Source: a bacterium (GTDB lineage: Bacteria > Patescibacteriota > Patescibacteriia > Buchananbacterales > UBA6539). From it: DNA of 24,433 bases. Made by a program: the position numbers and the translations under genes. Positions 14,901 to 20,762 of the stretch are shown here, piece by piece (within the stretch, counting starts at the first letter, position 1; every line of letters starts with the position of its first letter). The stretch covers positions 1 through 24,433 of the forward strand of contig JAHFHR010000001.1 in the NCBI GenBank assembly GCA_023246815.1. The letters run 5' to 3'. The notes below the pieces were generated by a model. The model made no database searches and was not told the origin of the DNA. It saw only the letters and a list, made by a program, of their open reading frames with translations.

Positions 14901-17425
14901 GAACCAGTGCCAGAGTTAATACCAGCAAGCTGGAAGTAGGTGGTTGCATTACCCGCTACTGATAAAGTTCTTTTAGGAGTAGTAGTCCCAACACCAACAC
15001 GGTCAGTGTCTGCCTGAACCACTAAAGTCGTTGCATCAACAGTTAGGTTTCCTGTAGTGGTGGCGTTGTTACCGACCCATAAATCACCCGAGCTAAGCGC
15101 TCTACCATTATTTGCCTTTCCAATATTGAGATAGCCAGTGGTTGAAGCGTTACCCGATGAATCAATGGTGAACAAGTCACCATTACCAACTACAAATGAT
15201 TGACTTGGGGTTAGATCTAGGATGCCTACTCTATTAGTATCGGCTTGTACTATGAAGGTACTTGCATCAACCGTAAGATTGCCGGTGGTGGTGGCATTAT
15301 TACTAACCCACAAGTCACCTGAACTTAATGATCGTCCATTATTCGCCTTCCCAACATTTAGGTACCCGGTGGTTGAGGCGTTACCTGATGAATCAACGGT
15401 GAACAGTTCACCTGAACCAACTGTGAAGAGGCTGGCTGGAGAGGTGTCGCCGATACCGACATTACCAGCAAAATAGTTATACGCATTGGAGTCTGAAGCG
15501 TAAAATGAGAATGGCGTATTGGTTTGTGTGCCGGTGGTAATATCCCCAATATACGCTCCATAAGTAGTACCAATAGTTCCGGCATTGGTGATGTCTCGAA
15601 CACGTAGTCCATAAGCAGTAGTCATAACACCAGATGAATTTTGAATCATAGTGTCAAGGCCAACAGCAAGAGTGACTGTTTGGCCGCCGCTATTAGTCAC
15701 AAATGAAAATTCCCCGATAGCTCCTCCAAGTGTTCCGGTGCCAAGGTGTCGCGCTTGATTACTAGCTCCAAAAATAGTTAGGTTAGTAAGTGCAGTACTA
15801 TTACCAGAGGGAACGGTGGTCAGTGAATACAGACCTTGAATATTTTTAGCAGTACTGGGGTCGGCAGCCAAATTGGCACTTGTATCTATATAAAAAGCTC
15901 GCAATGGTTGGGTGAAGCTTTCATTGGTGAACTGTTGATTAAATACAGTTCCAACGGTTAGAGCTTGGCCAGCCGTATCGGTGTAAGAACCAAGACTGTT
16001 AAGGGCTTGCAGGTGGAGTAGCCCGACGGGTGAAGCAGTGCCAATACCAATGCGGATATCTTCTTTTGCAGCCCCTGTTTGTACAATAAAGGTTGACGTT
16101 GATACCGAGAAGTTTCCAGTGGTGGTGGCATTGTTACTCACCCACAAATCACCTGAGCTAAGCGCTCTACCATTATTCGCTTTTCCAACATTTAAGTACC
16201 CGGTGGTTGAAGCGTTACCCGATGAATCAATGGTGAACAAGTCACCATTACCAACTGTAAATGCCTGAGATGGTGAAAGGTCTAAAATACCAACTCTGTT
16301 ATTGTCAGCCTGTACAATAAAGGTGCTACTATCTACCGTGAGATTGCCGGTGGTGGTGGCATTATTACTCACCCATAAATCACCAGCACTATTGGGCCCG
16401 GTTGGGTTTGCAGTGCCTATTAACAACTTACCGGTAGTGGTAGTGCTGCCAAATACCGACAAATCTGTTCGCACCTGCAATGGTGAGTAGGCGTAAATGC
16501 GTTCTACCTGGAGATCCTTGCCCTGGGCAATCGTCACATTAGTTTGGAAGGTGGTAGTAGCAGTGCTACTATTTGCCGCATTATTGATTTCGTTGACTGA
16601 AAATATACCAGTGGTAGTAGCATTACCGTCAATACGCAAGTCACGTACTGTTGAAGATGCCGTAATATACAATCCAATGTTCGTGCTGGTTGGCGTGATC
16701 GCCCGGTCAAAGGCGTAACTCCAGTATGACAAGCCATTCGCGCCCGTGAGCTGGGCGGCATCAAAGAACAAATTATTTCCAGAAACATACAGGTTGTTAA
16801 AGTTTGCAATATTATCGCCATCACCACCAAAAATTAGATTGGTACTGGTAGCTCTTGTTGAGGATACTCCCCCGTCAAATAAGTTTAAGGTTTTTTTGCT
16901 ATCATAAGCTGGTAGATAATTTGCCACTGCCTTAGTATTGGTGGCATGGAAACCATCAACGGTGTCGGCGTTGAAGGCGTATGGCACAGCGGTTAATCGT
17001 TTTCTGGTACCAAACGCCTCTTCCCAGGTGCCATTACCGTTAGCATCAATGTGTACCTGAAGGTAGAGGCTGTCGCTGTTAAAGTTCACCCCAGCAATTG
17101 ACGAGATGCTCCCCAAGCTGACACTAAATATTCCATTGACCGTGGTCACTTGGGTTGAGGTTGATGTCCAGCGCTCAGTCCAAAGTAGATTCCCTCCGCT
17201 ACTCGCATCGTAGAGCCTGAATCTAAAGGCCCAGCTACCATTTGACACTTGATTGCCACTGGTGTCCGTGAGTTTGCCTTGGTAGTTGAGCTGACTGTTG
17301 ATGCCGGTAGCGGCACGAACTTCACCACTGTCAAGCGCCAAACCAAAACCAAGCAACGCTACCATCAGTGCTGGGAGTACCAGTGGCGCGCAGTATCGCT
17401 TGAATTTAGTTAGAAGCTCGTACAT
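11918..17425 (-). CDS. Giant secreted repeat fibre/adhesin-like protein with internal Peptidase_S74 intramolecular chaperone
   Basis: 1835 aa; signal-peptide-like N-terminus (…VRA|A); NYQGKLTD…VPYA domain; GIG/GVGTxxP modules; SDDRIKKN…IGLVAQEV…IDY…ALQ chaperone at ~12918-13210; Ig-like domain and GCT…DDGSC motif at the C-terminus. Confidence 0.9.
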   Translation of the reverse strand: MYELLTKFKRYCAPLVLPALMVALLGFGLALDSGEVRAATGINSQLNYQGKLTDTSGNQVSNGSWAFRFRLYDASSGGNLLWTERWTSTSTQVTTVNGIFSVSLGSISSIAGVNFNSDSLYLQVHIDANGNGTWEEAFGTRKRLTAVPYAFNADTVDGFHATNTKAVANYLPAYDSKKTLNLFDGGVSSTRATSTNLIFGGDGDNIANFNNLYVSGNNLFFDAAQLTGANGLSYWSYAFDRAITPTSTNIGLYITASSTVRDLRIDGNATTTGIFSVNEINNAANSSTATTTFQTNVTIAQGKDLQVERIYAYSPLQVRTDLSVFGSTTTTGKLLIGTANPTGPNSAGDLWVSNNATTTGNLTVDSSTFIVQADNNRVGILDLSPSQAFTVGNGDLFTIDSSGNASTTGYLNVGKANNGRALSSGDLWVSNNATTTGNFSVSTSTFIVQTGAAKEDIRIGIGTASPVGLLHLQALNSLGSYTDTAGQALTVGTVFNQQFTNESFTQPLRAFYIDTSANLAADPSTAKNIQGLYSLTTVPSGNSTALTNLTIFGASNQARHLGTGTLGGAIGEFSFVTNSGGQTVTLAVGLDTMIQNSSGVMTTAYGLRVRDITNAGTIGTTYGAYIGDITTGTQTNTPFSFYASDSNAYNYFAGNVGIGDTSPASLFTVGSGELFTVDSSGNASTTGYLNVGKANNGRSLSSGDLWVSNNATTTGNLTVDASTFIVQADTNRVGILDLTPSQSFVVGNGDLFTIDSSGNASTTGYLNIGKANNGRALSSGDLWVGNNATTTGNLTVDATTLVVQADTDRVGVGTTTPKRTLSVAGNATTYFQLAGINSGTGSSAITELQGLRTSADGDVAQIDVMNFDTTATADKSAIARILFEKGAAVNTGSIALQVRPNTAGSATTALFVEETGNIGIGDGTPSQLFTVGSGDLFTIDSSGNASTTGYLNIGKANNGRALSSGDLWVGNNATTTGNLTVDGTTLVVQADTNSVGVGTTTPDTSAGLTVEKNGTDSIYALKLFNWGTSGDYLEATNRFGTPGINLKQSSAGDSLINLYDLSGNADVLLHTAADSYFNGGDFGIGDTSPASLFTVGSGELFTIDSSGNASTTGYVQIGKTFGITPALGTGDLYVGRNATTTGNFTASSQSAFGSSLDNVSQVRFGGTLSDTSASVDGIVLIDGEVDFSSNADDGHGLYLIPLFDESGAEVSSDGYAMRINSTYSGTADAMRSYVGLNIVEETGFASEEIGLLIGTRPAGTTNYSIYNASANNVYLGTGNVGIGTAAPGSNLHVYVSDTDTATPELYIEQDSTGDAALEFAVASGVDYIMGIDNSSTGDQFMISYAASQNGGVLGTNTGLAIHGSTGNVALDSGAIDTSATGYSVVLPLAGSGNTGYGNAIGWTDSSDDRIKKNQQQLDYGIAEIMKLKPKRYNQFGATFVDGELVLTGEGFNTIGLVAQEVLDIIPEAVHPGDDTHIWSIDYNKFAPVIIRALQQQQEQIQGLLQGSSNPTAQEGQSPNVAANTLYIDQPVEVTGEVIYRAPVTYNDRLIVNQAATFYGTIVVKGEAQFEHIVVFRKDVKILGKLYVSGDQAGSAVVKANATSTQVTFDGEYGTVPKIVANLSDDSAVFVNWKIIDKTATGFTIALENTVNESVTFDWIALAIDGSLAASKTAPVINDLILSHQSVGAGVPVEFWAQVTDPDTENKDLRYRWVLSPHIGKVDGKSGIVYWQANEGDLPTENTEMTVRVIVSDGTNEVELSKTILILAGSDNKPQPGPEIANEGAEQSEPPATVLGCTNADANNFNADATQDDGSCVIEPPGTPAPAATPTTTPTT
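13991..16291 (-). repeat. Five intragenic ~231-bp (77-aa) repeat units
   Basis: Units at 16049-16291, 15227-15457, 14996-15226, 14441-14671 and degenerate ~13991-14179; core FT(I/V)DSSGNASTTGY…GD(L)W/YV.NNATTTGN; a partial copy precedes the first (~16292-16445). Confidence 0.9.
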
Positions 17426-17562
17426 GGTTAATTATCGTTGGTAGTAAAAGTTTGTCTTTAGGAAACTAGAAATTTCGCCAGTATATTTTTCTAGCGAATG
17501 GTAAAAATGTTGTTGATGGCAACTCCAGACATACATGGCACAATTTAAAACACCCAAAAGCC

Positions 17563-17814
17563 TTACGCTCCAACTAAGTGTGAAGCGGCTGTTGCGTGTT
17601 GGTTCTTGTGAACGTTGTGGCCACTGCGGAAATAGTCGGTGGCGTGAACCAACCGAATAATTTCGTCGACCTGCGCTTGACTGTAACAACGCCAGCCGCG
17701 ACTGTCGCGGTGCGCTTTGGGAATCAGTCCTTCCTCTTCCCAGCGAATGACGGTTGTTTTGTTGCGGTCGATCTCCCGCAGGATGTCCTGGAGTCGATAA
17801 TAGCCTGCTATCAT
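17563..17814 (-). CDS. Stand-alone MerR-type helix-turn-helix protein
   Basis: 83 aa from ATG 17814 with GGAG upstream; YRLQDIL…KTTVIRWEEEGLIP…RDSRGWRCY matches the MerR HTH pattern; no effector or dimerisation domain. Confidence 0.85.
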   Translation of the reverse strand: MIAGYYRLQDILREIDRNKTTVIRWEEEGLIPKAHRDSRGWRCYSQAQVDEIIRLVHATDYFRSGHNVHKNQHATAASHLVGA

Positions 17815-17859
17815 AGTGCTCCGTTTTGTTATTTTTATCTTTGTTTTTGTATAGTGCCG

Positions 17860-18131
17860 ACCTTTGGCAAACAAAAAGACGTTTGCACAAAAAGCAAAAC
17901 GTCGCAAAGGTTCCCCAAGGGGAAGTACCGTTATATAATTGCGCAGCTTTGGTAGCGTAGATACTACTACCTCCAGACGTCATTTGACGACCGGCACGAA
18001 GCTGAGTTTGGCCACTTCTACTGATTTTGGCAGAAGTAGTACGTTTTTGCTTTTTGTTTTGCTGGGCCTCTTTCCCCCAAGGGGTATAAGATTTCTGTCC
18101 AGCAAAGTATACCGCTATACCAGTATACTCT
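17860..18131 (-). ncRNA. Structured cis-regulatory leader or sRNA (candidate riboswitch/attenuator)
   Basis: At least seven helices between the promoter and the MerR ATG; three G-U wobble pairs work only on the minus strand; a 16-bp long-range helix is mutually exclusive with the terminator. Confidence 0.65.
17869..17903 (-). terminator. Intrinsic terminator within the leader upstream of the MerR-type gene (attenuator)
   Basis: Minus strand GACGUUUUGC-UUUUUGU-GCAAACGUC followed by UUUUUGUUU, ending ~54 nt before the ATG. Confidence 0.65.
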
Positions 18132-18137
18132 GATATA

Positions 18138-18166
18138 AGTGTAGCACAACTAAGCCAAAAAGTCAA
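18138..18166 (-). promoter_or_regulatory. sigma70 promoter (extended -10) for the leader/MerR/giant-protein unit
   Basis: TTGACT(18166-18161), 17 bp, TG-n-TACACT(18143-18138). Confidence 0.7.
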
Positions 18167-18251
18167 TAGTTTTAGCCAAAATTTGCCTAATTTTACTTTT
18201 ATTTTCATTTTTTTGATCTTTTCCTCCATAAGTTTATTTTTAGCCCTACTT

Positions 18252-18446
18252 TTACGTCTTTGGTTTTTTCTTTATTTTGCGGCCATATACAAAAGCAATC
18301 AGATCCCGTTCGAAAATCCGATAGGTTCTTTCTCCAAGTTGGCTTACGGGCAGTTCGCCTGATTCAATCCAGCGATAGACAGTCTTAAGGCTTACACCAA
18401 GCCTTTGGGCGACTTGCTCCATTGTCAGCAGATCAAAATCTGCCAT
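18252..18446 (-). CDS. Excisionase-family (HTH_17) helix-turn-helix DNA-binding protein
   Basis: 64 aa; LLTMEQVAQRLGVSLKTVYRWIESGELP…YRIFERDL is the typical pattern. Confidence 0.85.
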   Translation of the reverse strand: MADFDLLTMEQVAQRLGVSLKTVYRWIESGELPVSQLGERTYRIFERDLIAFVYGRKIKKKPKT

Positions 18447-18502
18447 GTTGAGTCATTTTTTTAGAAAATTCCACGCGGAACATTAAGCGCTATTTTCGCT
18501 AT

Positions 18503-18532
18503 ATTATACTGAAATTATAGCCAAAATGTCTA
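18503..18532 (-). promoter_or_regulatory. sigma70 promoter for the HTH_17 gene
   Basis: TAGACA(18532-18527), 18 bp, TATAAT(18508-18503); a second TATAAT lies at 18519-18514. Confidence 0.55.
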
Positions 18533-18666
18533 CTTAAGTAAAGTGGATATCTTAAAAGACATTTAAAATAGATAAAAATAGCTATAAATACTCTCAAGTT
18601 TATTTAAGTCTTTTAATGTCTTTTTAAATTAGAATAAAATAGCTTAGAAATTAAATATTTGTTATA

Positions 18667-18695
18667 TTGGTCACTCCCTGATGGTGTGTTATACT
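18667..18695 (+). promoter_or_regulatory. Extended -10 promoter for the SxtJ/carbamoyltransferase cassette
   Basis: TTGGTC(18667-18672), 17 bp, TG-n-TATACT(18690-18695); the ATG follows 8 nt later. Confidence 0.5.
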
Positions 18696-18703
18696 GCAAC
18701 CAC

Positions 18704-18967
18704 ATGAACAGCAAAAAACAACAAAGCATGTCTTCTCTCGGGTATATTCGCGAGGCCGGTCAGGAGTATGTTCGGCTGGTCAATACAATCATCAATGGTA
18801 TGTTGTTAACCGTCGTGTATGTGGTGGGTATTGGGTTGACAGCAGTAGTGGCAAAGCTTTTTGGTAAGCATTTTTTAGAGACAAAGATTGATGACGTGAC
18901 CGTAACGTACTGGAATGATTTTGAATCCGCGGTGTCGATTAAAAAGAGCATTTATCGCCAGTTTTAA
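18704..18967 (+). CDS. SxtJ-family small membrane protein
   Basis: 87 aa; NGMLLTVVYVVGIGLTAVVAKLFGKHFL…TYW…RQF matches the SxtJ-like pattern; adjacent to a carbamoyltransferase; ATG 18704 preferred over TTG 18659. Confidence 0.75.
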   Translation: MNSKKQQSMSSLGYIREAGQEYVRLVNTIINGMLLTVVYVVGIGLTAVVAKLFGKHFLETKIDDVTVTYWNDFESAVSIKKSIYRQF

Positions 18968-19031
18968 CCTTCATCCCTAACCCCTGCCTATCGGCCCGCT
19001 ACACCGGAGCGTTAGTGAGGCGAGCACTTGT

Positions 19032-20762
19032 ATGTATATTTTAGGAATTTCTTGCTATTACCACGACGCAGCGGCAACGTTACTGAAAGATGGCGTGGTG
19101 ATAGCGGCTGCCGAAGAAGAGCGCTTCACGCGCAAAAAGCACGATAACGCTTTCCCGCTCAATGCCATTCGGTTTTGTTTAGCGCGTGAGGGCATTACTG
19201 CAAAAGATCTAGCGTTTATTGGATTTTACGAAAAACCGTTAGTAAAATTTGAGCGCCTGTTGTTCTCCTGTCTAGAAACTTTCCCTCAAAGTTTTATAGC
19301 ATTTATTTCGGCTTTGCCATCGTGGCTCACTGAAAAATTGCGGATTCAAAAAACGATTCGCAAAAAATTAAAATATAAAGGCGATATTATTTTTATTCCG
19401 CACCATCTGGCGCACGCCGCTCAGTTTTTGGTCAGTCCATTTGAACGCGCTGCGGTGGTGACTGTTGATGGCGTAGGGGAGTGGACCACGACTGCCTGGG
19501 GCATTGGTGTTGGAACAAACATCAGCTTGAAAAAAGAAATTCGTTTTCCGCATTCGCTTGGGTTATTGTATTCAACCATCACTGCCTATCTTGGTTTTTC
19601 AGTAAATGACGCGGAGTATAAAGTAATGGGCCTGTCAGCCTATGGTAACACTGATCCCGCCACTAATGAGTATTACCAAAAATTGCGACGGCTGATTGAC
19701 GTGAAGTCAGATGGCAGTTTTCGGTTAGATATGAGCTACTTTAGCTATCATTATACTGATCGAATGCCATCAAAAAAATTGCAGCAACTGTTGGGTGGTT
19801 CGACGCGCTTGCAGGATACAGAGATTACCAAGCGCCATCAAGATATTGCTGCTGCAGTCCAACTACTCTATGAAGATATATTTTTTAAAATATTGCAACA
19901 CGTTCAAAAAAGCACTGGTGAAGAAAATCTGGTGTTGTCGGGTGGCACCATTCAGAACAGTGTTGCTAATGGTAAAGTGTTTCAGCAGACTCAATTTAAA
20001 AATGTTTGGGTCTCTTCCAATGTGACCGATGGTGGCACCAGTTTGGGTGTTGCCAGTTATATTTATCATTCAGTATTAAACAACCCACGTCAGCAGGCAC
20101 TTGCTACAGCGTTCCTTGGTCCTGCTTTTTCATCTGACGCGGTCCAGCTATTTTTAGACAACCATCATATTAGCTACACTACATTCCAAGATCGTCAACA
20201 GCTGATTGACGCTGCCGTTACGTTACTACTTGATAATCAGGTCGTTGGCTGGTTTCAGGGTGCGATGGAGTTTGGTCCGCGGGCGCTGGGGGCACGTAGT
20301 ATTTTAGCTAATCCTACTAACCCTGCGATGCAAGAAGTTTTAAATAAAAAAGTAAAGCACCGAGAAGCATTTCGTCCGTTTGCGCCGGTGGTATGTACCG
20401 AAGACGCCGCGACCTATTTTGATGTTCCAATGCCGTTACCCGCGGCCGCAGATTTTATGACGATGGTGTTTCCGGTGCGTTCAGAGTGGCGCCAGCGGTT
20501 ACCCGCGATTACCCATGTTGACGGTAGTGCGCGCGTCCAAACATTGCAGCGTCAGCACCAGCCGCTGCTGTATGACGTGATCAAGGCATTTGGCGTGGCG
20601 TCTGGGGTACCAGTACTGATCAACACTTCCTTTAACGTGCGCGGTGAGCCGATTGTCTGTACTCCGGAGGATGCATATCGCTGTCTGATGGGAACCGAGA
20701 TTGATTTTTTGGTGATGGAAAATTTTTTAATAAAACGAAGTGATAACCTCCTTCATAGCTAA
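19032..20762 (+). CDS. O-carbamoyltransferase (NodU/CmcH/TobZ family)
   Basis: HDAAA, AEEERFTRKKH, HHLAHA, DGVGE, EYKVMGLSAYG, EFGPRALGARS, REAFRPFAP, HVDGSARVQT and NTSFN motifs. Confidence 0.95.
   Translation: MYILGISCYYHDAAATLLKDGVVIAAAEEERFTRKKHDNAFPLNAIRFCLAREGITAKDLAFIGFYEKPLVKFERLLFSCLETFPQSFIAFISALPSWLTEKLRIQKTIRKKLKYKGDIIFIPHHLAHAAQFLVSPFERAAVVTVDGVGEWTTTAWGIGVGTNISLKKEIRFPHSLGLLYSTITAYLGFSVNDAEYKVMGLSAYGNTDPATNEYYQKLRRLIDVKSDGSFRLDMSYFSYHYTDRMPSKKLQQLLGGSTRLQDTEITKRHQDIAAAVQLLYEDIFFKILQHVQKSTGEENLVLSGGTIQNSVANGKVFQQTQFKNVWVSSNVTDGGTSLGVASYIYHSVLNNPRQQALATAFLGPAFSSDAVQLFLDNHHISYTTFQDRQQLIDAAVTLLLDNQVVGWFQGAMEFGPRALGARSILANPTNPAMQEVLNKKVKHREAFRPFAPVVCTEDAATYFDVPMPLPAAADFMTMVFPVRSEWRQRLPAITHVDGSARVQTLQRQHQPLLYDVIKAFGVASGVPVLINTSFNVRGEPIVCTPEDAYRCLMGTEIDFLVMENFLIKRSDNLLHS

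Follow-up and report, generated by a model that had tools for sequence, protein, structure and literature searches.

A predicted attenuator and a conserved stop-free frame ahead of a MerR-like gene and a giant fibre-like gene in Patescibacteria

The locus and its structured leader

To our knowledge, gene regulation in Patescibacteria (CPR) is almost unexplored. Giant surface proteins of these bacteria are thought to mediate attachment to host cells, and the locus described here raises the question of how the gene for a giant fibre-like protein may be controlled. The window, by which we mean the whole stretch of 24,433 nucleotides that we analyzed, comes from contig 17 of a 0.74-Mb genome (88% complete) from a groundwater metagenome; related contigs carry the labels Patescibacteria/Parcubacteria, for example Candidatus Buchananbacteria. 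On its minus strand, an HTH_17 gene is followed by a structured leader, a MerR-like gene and the fibre-like gene (Table 1), with glycosyltransferase, acyl-carrier and carbamoyltransferase genes on the flanks. The HTH_17 gene is co-directional with the leader and lies directly upstream of it, a synteny kept in most homologous loci. The MerR-like gene sits nested, out of frame, within a longer stop-free frame, ORF-X, and the first possible start codon of the fibre gene in the window lies 6 nt past the ORF-X stop. DNA sequencing runs contain the locus; three metatranscriptomes from the same sample or study yielded no contig on it.

Table 1. Coordinates of the features in the window
Feature	Position	Strand	Description
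HTH_17 (excisionase-type HTH) gene, 64 aa	18252..18446	-	Pfam PF12728, E = 1e-14
ORF-X, 265 codons	17432..18229	-	stop-free frame, -1 relative to the MerR-like ATG
Inverted repeat TTAGGCAAA-T-TTTGGCTAA	18172-18190		just upstream of the -35
Internal promoter-like site	18138..18166	-	-35 TTGACT 18166-18161, 17-nt spacer with TG, -10 TACACT 18143-18138
P1, 10-bp hairpin	18105..18130	-	18130-18121 / 18114-18105
P2 hairpin	18060..18104	-	outer stem 18104-18099 / 18065-18060, plus inner stems
Strand A (ACAAAAAGCAAAAACGU)	18041..18057	-	anti-terminator 5' strand, from the predicted fold and homologues
Variable insert within A:B	17903..18040	-	hairpin 18039-18012; three-way junction 18004-17944 (18004-17999 / 17949-17944, with hairpins 17994-17973 and 17971-17951); stem 17943-17939 / 17907-17903
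Strand B (ACGUUUUGCUUUUUGU)	17887..17902	-	anti-terminator 3' strand and terminator 5' arm and loop; invariant in 14 sequences
A:B long-range helix	18057-18045 and 18043-18041 with 17902-17887	-	16 bp, one bulge
Terminator-like hairpin B:C	17869..17903	-	17903-17894 / 17886-17878; U-run 17877-17869
AAAGGTCG motif	17858..17865	-	between terminator and MerR-like start; conserved across distant MerR-like loci
MerR-like HTH gene, 83 aa	17563..17814	-	Pfam MerR_1, 25.6 bits against a cut-off of 21.6
Fibre-like protein gene, 1835 aa	11918..17425	-	Peptidase_S74 (S74 chaperone domain)

We folded the leader (17860-18131, minus strand) and compared it with 200 dinucleotide shuffles. Its minimum-energy fold reached -98 kcal/mol against -70.6 +/- 4.9 kcal/mol for the shuffles (z = -5.64), and 0 of the 200 shuffles folded as well. 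The opposite (plus) strand reached -85.9 kcal/mol (z = -4.17). This is 12 kcal/mol worse, which fits with several G-U pairs that work on the minus strand only; the original prediction had pointed to such pairs, and all the helices that it named are present in the minimum-energy fold.

We looked for homologues at the DNA level in 60 relatives, scanned all species genomes from a protein anchor, ran a protein search and screened metagenomes for a DNA pattern. These searches yielded 15 distinct homologous leaders, from one Patescibacteria family (groundwater) and from metagenomes, few and related enough that counts across them overstate independence. Every one lies directly upstream of a MerR-like gene. 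Their common modules are the promoter, the P1 GGUAUAG hairpin (three or four 8-nt GGTATAG repeats), P2, strand A (ACAAAAAGCAAAAAC), the insert, strand B (ACGUUUUGCUUUUUGU), arm C (CAAAACG) and the U-run. RNAalifold recovers P1, P2 and A:B. The leader had been predicted to be a structured cis-element ahead of the MerR-like and fibre genes, and its strand specificity and its conservation in 15 leaders bear that out.

Base pairs were counted with RNAalifold and our own scripts. The closing pair of P1 is AU in eight homologues, GU in four and GC in one. The outer stem of P2 varies as AU:6/CG:5, UA:10/CG:2 and GC:11/AU:1, with double compensatory changes at three of its five pairs (RNAalifold); its 5' internal loop, AGAAAUC, is conserved, and P2 as a whole is absent in one lineage (G007). 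Between the window and L120, 71 pairs include 6 compensatory and 5 wobble changes and no broken pair; between L124 and L128, 90 pairs include 4 of each and again none broken. Within lineages the insert keeps its structure and not its sequence: close pairs change 8-11 stem positions, none of them broken, and unpaired columns vary 2-3 times as often as paired ones, counts on close relatives that lean toward structure because the structure was chosen to fit both sequences.

Strands A and B are invariant in 14 sequences and there say nothing about pairing, so that direct covariation of A:B comes from three divergent leaders. Those of G015 and G004 share a coordinated 2-nt deletion on both strands (CAAAGC/GCUUUG), and that of L074, which reads AAUAAAGCAAA/UUUGCUUUAUU, differs by two compensatory changes. 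Arm C drifts from A to G, giving U-G pairs; strand B, which has two would-be partners, stays fixed. An inverton, that is DNA inversion at the A:B inverted repeat, was rejected: both the strand asymmetry and the drift of arm C toward U-G pairs favor a function at the RNA level, and no recombinase lies nearby. An RNase III site was considered among other readings of A:B and set aside.

A covariance model of the 5' module, run on 150 class-level genomes, returned family members, L073 and two doubtful or false matches only. As nothing convincing appeared outside the family, the element is narrowly distributed. Extra matches to the 17-nt A motif, found in many genomes, came from rpsD coding sequence (EKQKAKR) or were A-rich noise.

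A promoter had been predicted ahead of the leader, and a promoter-like site is indeed located there. Its TTGACT and TGCTA are invariant in the homologues even though ORF-X, which crosses them, is under no amino-acid constraint, and distant MerR-like loci carry the same promoter type. We expect that it acts as an internal promoter. P1, which follows, is built of three 8-nt repeats (GTATAC-TG-GTATAG-CG-GTATAC) that double as -10-like hexamers; L124 and L128 have four GGTATAGT repeats in place of three. The TATAG repeat array is family-wide and found in MerR-like loci of several Patescibacteria orders; it may act as an RNA hairpin, as an operator or as a sigma-dependent array of pause sites.

Several smaller features of the locus were recorded. 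Across loci (window 18105-18130; L073-L108), the arrays consist of 2-4 direct TATAG(Y)NN repeats at about +8 to +35, with an 8-nt period; they follow a near-consensus TTGACC-17-TATAAT promoter, and each repeat reads TATAGT/TATACT, a -10-like hexamer. In L068 (G005a) the P1 region is duplicated, with a 16-nt tandem repeat. One of the HTH proteins may use the inverted repeat next to the -35 as its operator. GCTAA/TTAGC half-sites also recur upstream of promoters in the distant relatives L080, L094 and L116. Further downstream, AAAGGTCG(A/G)AAAC stands 40-100 nt ahead of the MerR-like start in L083, L087, L093, L097, L102 and L050, and is kept across distant lineages, including one gene copy that has no leader. 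A second promoter-like site (AAGACA-16-GATAAT, 17431-17458) has the ORF-X stop codon within its -10; a fibre-gene mRNA begun there would be leaderless, with its 5' end at the ATG (17425). The conservation of this site is not convincing.

A predicted terminator against a predicted anti-terminator

The terminator hairpin is weak, at -9 kcal/mol in the window and -3 to -10 kcal/mol in the homologues. A simple consensus terminator scan of the window did not call it, owing to the bulge in its hairpin. A hairpin followed by a run of U5-U9 is nonetheless present in all homologues, and it is the predicted 3' structure in 14 of 15 leaders once strand A is blocked (ddG in this comparison, 2.5-12 kcal/mol). 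The A:B helix spans 13-16 bp and is worth -11 to -20 kcal/mol across homologues. Strand A is mostly unpaired in predicted folding until strand B is transcribed, and in 15 of 15 leaders A:B is predicted as soon as B emerges, with no ligand needed. The two structures share strand B. They are mutually exclusive in all 15 distinct homologues, as had been foreseen for the window.

With strand A free up to the point at which B is transcribed, and with A:B much more stable than B:C, read-through is the predicted default. In this model, termination would need strand A to be occupied, and the leader hairpin would then probably be a site of real termination. When A:B forms, arm C can also pair with part of the U-run (GCAAACG/UGUUUGC, 17867-17886), which would disable the terminator further.

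What, then, might set the choice between the two forms? A protein is one answer. An HTH protein or another factor could act on the GGTATAG array, as a DNA operator or as an RNA hairpin, or a factor could bind the A-rich strand A, and so decide whether the terminator forms or the promoter fires. Beyond A, B and C, the most conserved parts of the leader are the repeat array (about +8 to +35) and the promoter; both are found across orders, always before a MerR-like gene. Strand A stays single-stranded until B appears, and three genomes (G005a, G015 and G004) have A:B:C without ORF-X. However, neither HTH protein has a recognizable RNA-binding domain, and the 8-nt period of the repeats fits no known operator geometry. 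We consider control of this kind unlikely on balance.

The original prediction offered another answer: a riboswitch with the ON logic of pbuE. A metabolite or ion bound at the three-way junction or at the P2 AGAAAUC loop would stabilize or destabilize A:B. The layout of the leader, with a predicted terminator and anti-terminator that exclude each other, is that of a riboswitch platform, and P2 has its conserved internal loop. No known family matches either. Rfam 15, riboswitches and T-boxes included, gave 0 matches over the window at gathering thresholds; at E values up to 10, positions 17400-19100 gave two chance matches, both outside the element, in line with the prediction that it belongs to no known Rfam family. 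A literature search for structured RNAs or riboswitches in Patescibacteria returned nothing relevant.

A riboswitch would show a conserved aptamer architecture with conserved junction nucleotides, and the homologues do not. The insert enclosed by A:B ranges from 61 to 202 nt, and only 34 nt separate A from B in L074. Most lineages have a three-way junction with CCRGAC...GUCUGG, but its junction and loop bases are unconserved. The insert architecture differs in G008, G007, L123 and G015, and the junction is missing from the first three, of which G007 lacks P2 as well. In L082 (G015), the insert even tolerates a (GTTGA)14 microsatellite of 70 nt. The proposed logic is not supported either: in pbuE, a short P1 requires ligand to out-compete the terminator, whereas here A:B (-11 to -20 kcal/mol) is predicted to beat the terminator (-3 to -10 kcal/mol) unaided. 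The downstream genes give no metabolic hint. Judged by its sequence, the leader lacks the marks of a metabolite riboswitch and has no conserved ligand pocket, so the riboswitch claim is not supported; we hold it to be improbable.

Processive antitermination of the Q-like or put-like kind was also weighed. By analogy, the -10-like repeats would pause the polymerase, and a factor or the nascent RNA would modify it so that it runs past the leader terminator and on through the 5.5-kb fibre gene. The gene order is suggestive: a near-consensus promoter is followed by TATAGT/TATACT repeats and, some 100-330 nt downstream, by a terminator; the gene just upstream encodes a small DNA-binding protein, and a tail-fibre-like gene lies downstream. 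Yet no Q, N or LoaP homologue was seen, A:B and ORF-X would be left unexplained, and the case is purely one of analogy, which makes it decidedly improbable. We give even less credence to an independent, trans-acting small RNA of about 265 nt running from the internal promoter to the terminator: the strong promoter, the compact stable fold and the terminator-like 3' end would suit one, but the predicted dominant fold removes its own terminator, the genome holds no other complementary sites, and the element always lies directly upstream of a MerR-like gene.

A stop-free frame through the leader

The leader had been treated as non-coding. We found that a conserved open frame, ORF-X, crosses all of it: the frame starts just past the HTH_17 stop, runs through the promoter, the whole leader and the MerR-like gene, and stops 6 nt before the fibre ATG. 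ORF-X is open in 13 of 13 lineages, and the leaders contain no stop in its frame against 4-19 in the other frames. In five genome homologues, the -1 frame is open for 99-173 codons upstream and 89-142 codons downstream of the MerR ATG; in some 50 other MerR-like loci it is open for just 2-56 codons downstream. Six further loci, collected with a DNA pattern independent of any ORF, all had it open (6/6). When MerR codons were resampled synonymously, the -1 frame was open in 0 of 2000 trials per sequence. At the level of sequence, the open frame is not a product of chance.

Insert lengths point the same way: all ten distinct lengths are 1 mod 3. The sole exception, L126, carries two opposite frameshifts that restore the frame, so that its strand B is read in a different frame. 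Substitutions in the leader nevertheless fall evenly on the three codon positions of ORF-X (21/20/20, 22/22/28, 12/13/14 and 23/25/22), and likewise in the tail. In the MerR overlap they fall at MerR third positions, with no bias in the ORF-X frame. A test for purifying selection on ORF-X as a protein found no third-position excess. Thus the frame is maintained, but its protein product shows no conservation.

ORF-X is annotated as a hypothetical protein. It matches no Pfam family, and only three relatives were found among 5.8 billion proteins. A functional membrane protein, with the RNA structure incidental to its coding, is the least credible reading of all, since the conserved start with GGAGG, the hydrophobic N-terminal stretch and the calls of gene predictors stand against the missing third-position excess in leader and tail, conserved residues that exactly overlay the promoter, P1, A and B/C, the other reading frame of B in L126, the compensatory changes in the stems, and the lack of a family.

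Both ends of ORF-X have a regular setting. At the start, the conserved GGAGG lies ahead of the frame, which begins 20-90 nt beyond the stop codon that ends a co-directional gene upstream (in most loci HTH_17; in L126 an XRE-type HTH gene; in L123 an enzyme gene). At the end, the ORF-X stop lies 6, 7, 4, 3, 18, 19, 23 or 24 nt from the fibre ATG, or overlaps it as TAATG, in nine of nine distinct loci; these are the loci with the fibre ATG on the contig, L124 and L128 being left out because the contig ends past the ORF-X stop. In the latter two, which are metagenome contigs, the -1 frame crosses two tandem MerR-like genes and reaches 413-431 codons. The fibre gene start has no Shine-Dalgarno sequence of its own, and a stop near or overlapping the next start is the geometry of translational coupling. 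We infer that ORF-X is translated and coupled to the fibre gene.

ORF-X is present only where a co-directional upstream gene adjoins the leader without a terminator. Around the leaders that lack it in G004, G015 and L074, long spacers with terminator-like hairpins separate the upstream genes. Since A:B:C is present without ORF-X in the three genomes mentioned above, the trigger of the attenuator must be independent of ORF-X, and a second input is likely.

Translation may also enter the leader in more distant relatives. In Falkowbacteria, Komeilibacteria and others, the same promoter type and TATAG array are followed by an A-rich ribosome-binding stretch and a leader ORF. Such ORFs, of 19-38 codons, occur in 15 of 22 distant leaders against 7 expected by shuffling, and their stop codon lies in the terminator loop or just past the stem. 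They begin MKxNKN (L073, L080, L084, L087, L091, L093-L097, L101, L102, L104, L105 and L108); the peptides are rich in Lys and Asn because the RNA is A-rich, and no cluster of regulatory codons was seen on inspection of them. Strand A of our leader matches the A-rich ribosome-binding region of these leader ORFs in position and in sequence. Translation into the leader terminator thus appears to be a family-wide theme.

The long-range helix has a different distribution. A':B' pairing in the 22 distant MerR leaders was no better than in shuffles (median z = 0.2), so that the long-range anti-terminator is restricted to our lineage. The long A:B helix, and later ORF-X, would then be lineage-specific variations on the leader-ORF theme. 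Two of the distant leaders, L080 (CGCCAAAAUAAA/UUUAUUUUGGCG) and L094, resemble A:B when judged by eye.

A proposed ribosome-sensitive switch and its known counterparts

We propose that the leader is an attenuator with a default-winning anti-terminator, embedded in a translated conduit frame, and that it works as a ribosome-sensitive attenuator and translational relay. We would give this proposal an even chance. It draws on the conserved and covarying structure, the mutual exclusivity of its two forms, the geometry of stop and start, and the conservation of a frame whose amino acids are unconstrained.

Transcripts from the internal promoter would lack the ORF-X start and hence have an untranslated leader. 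Such a leader would fold A:B, read-through would follow and the MerR-like protein would be expressed. In transcripts entering from the upstream gene, ORF-X would be translated and its ribosomes would melt the leader; they would overrun the MerR-like start and reach the fibre start by termination-reinitiation. Termination in the leader would take an occupant of strand A; the candidates are a protein and a ribosome or 30S subunit seated on what was once a ribosome-binding stretch. The terminator would be blocked by a ribosome that follows the polymerase closely and favored by one that lags in the insert.

One further suggestion is more tentative. ORF-X may be a conduit kept open purely for ribosome travel over some 800-1300 nt, from the upstream gene to the start codon of the giant fibre gene, across a promoter, an attenuator and one or two out-of-frame regulator genes, with two mutually exclusive outputs, the MerR-like regulator or the fibre. 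We think this rather less likely than not. If true, the locus would be a bistable, phase-variation-like switch for an attachment fibre in an episymbiotic bacterium. More generally, the locus appears to be an unusually clean case of selection on the act of translation and not on the protein product, with a frame that stays open across hypervariable RNA under structural constraint as well as across the synonymous sites of another gene.

The locus offers a conserved, testable control element for a giant surface protein, and it carries two cautions. For riboswitch hunting, fold stability, covariation, overlap with a terminator and the lack of an Rfam match are together insufficient. For gene calling, a frame such as ORF-X is annotated as a hypothetical protein.

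How does this leader compare with known systems? Like the pbuE-type (adenine) ON riboswitch, it has one strand that serves both in a long-range closing helix and as the 5' half of the terminator. Unlike pbuE, it has no conserved aptamer core and no Rfam match; its closing helix, of 13-16 bp, is predicted to win ligand-free, and the enclosed domain varies in length and architecture. In the lambda pR'-tR' arrangement, a promoter with an early -10-like sequence and a leader terminator serves Q control of the late genes. Our locus resembles it, by analogy only, in its strong promoter, early -10-like sequence, leader terminator, upstream regulator gene and downstream fibre-type gene, but there is no Q homologue here.

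Protein-mediated attenuation by PyrR, TRAP or BglG/SacY is similar in that a factor, by occupying part of a default anti-terminator, lets a terminator form instead; in contrast to those systems, no such RNA-binding protein or binding motif was found here. Termination-reinitiation coupling, as in trpE-trpD and the overlapping genes of RNA phages, likewise places a stop a few nt before, or overlapping, a start that has no Shine-Dalgarno sequence of its own. It differs in that ORF-X apparently has no function at the protein level and overlays a gene, a promoter and an attenuator.

Leader-peptide attenuation, as in the trp operon and pyrBI, departs from our locus in several respects: ORF-X begins upstream of the leader's promoter, is 188-431 codons long, covers an entire regulator gene in another frame and ends at the ATG of the next gene, and no regulatory-codon cluster was seen here. 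Yet both have three-segment alternative pairing, here the predicted A:B versus B:C, and in both a translated frame would run into or through the terminator, if ORF-X is translated as we suppose. The leader ORF of pyrBI runs through its attenuator, and in the distant relatives of our leader, classic leader ORFs (19-38 codons) stop within the terminator loop.
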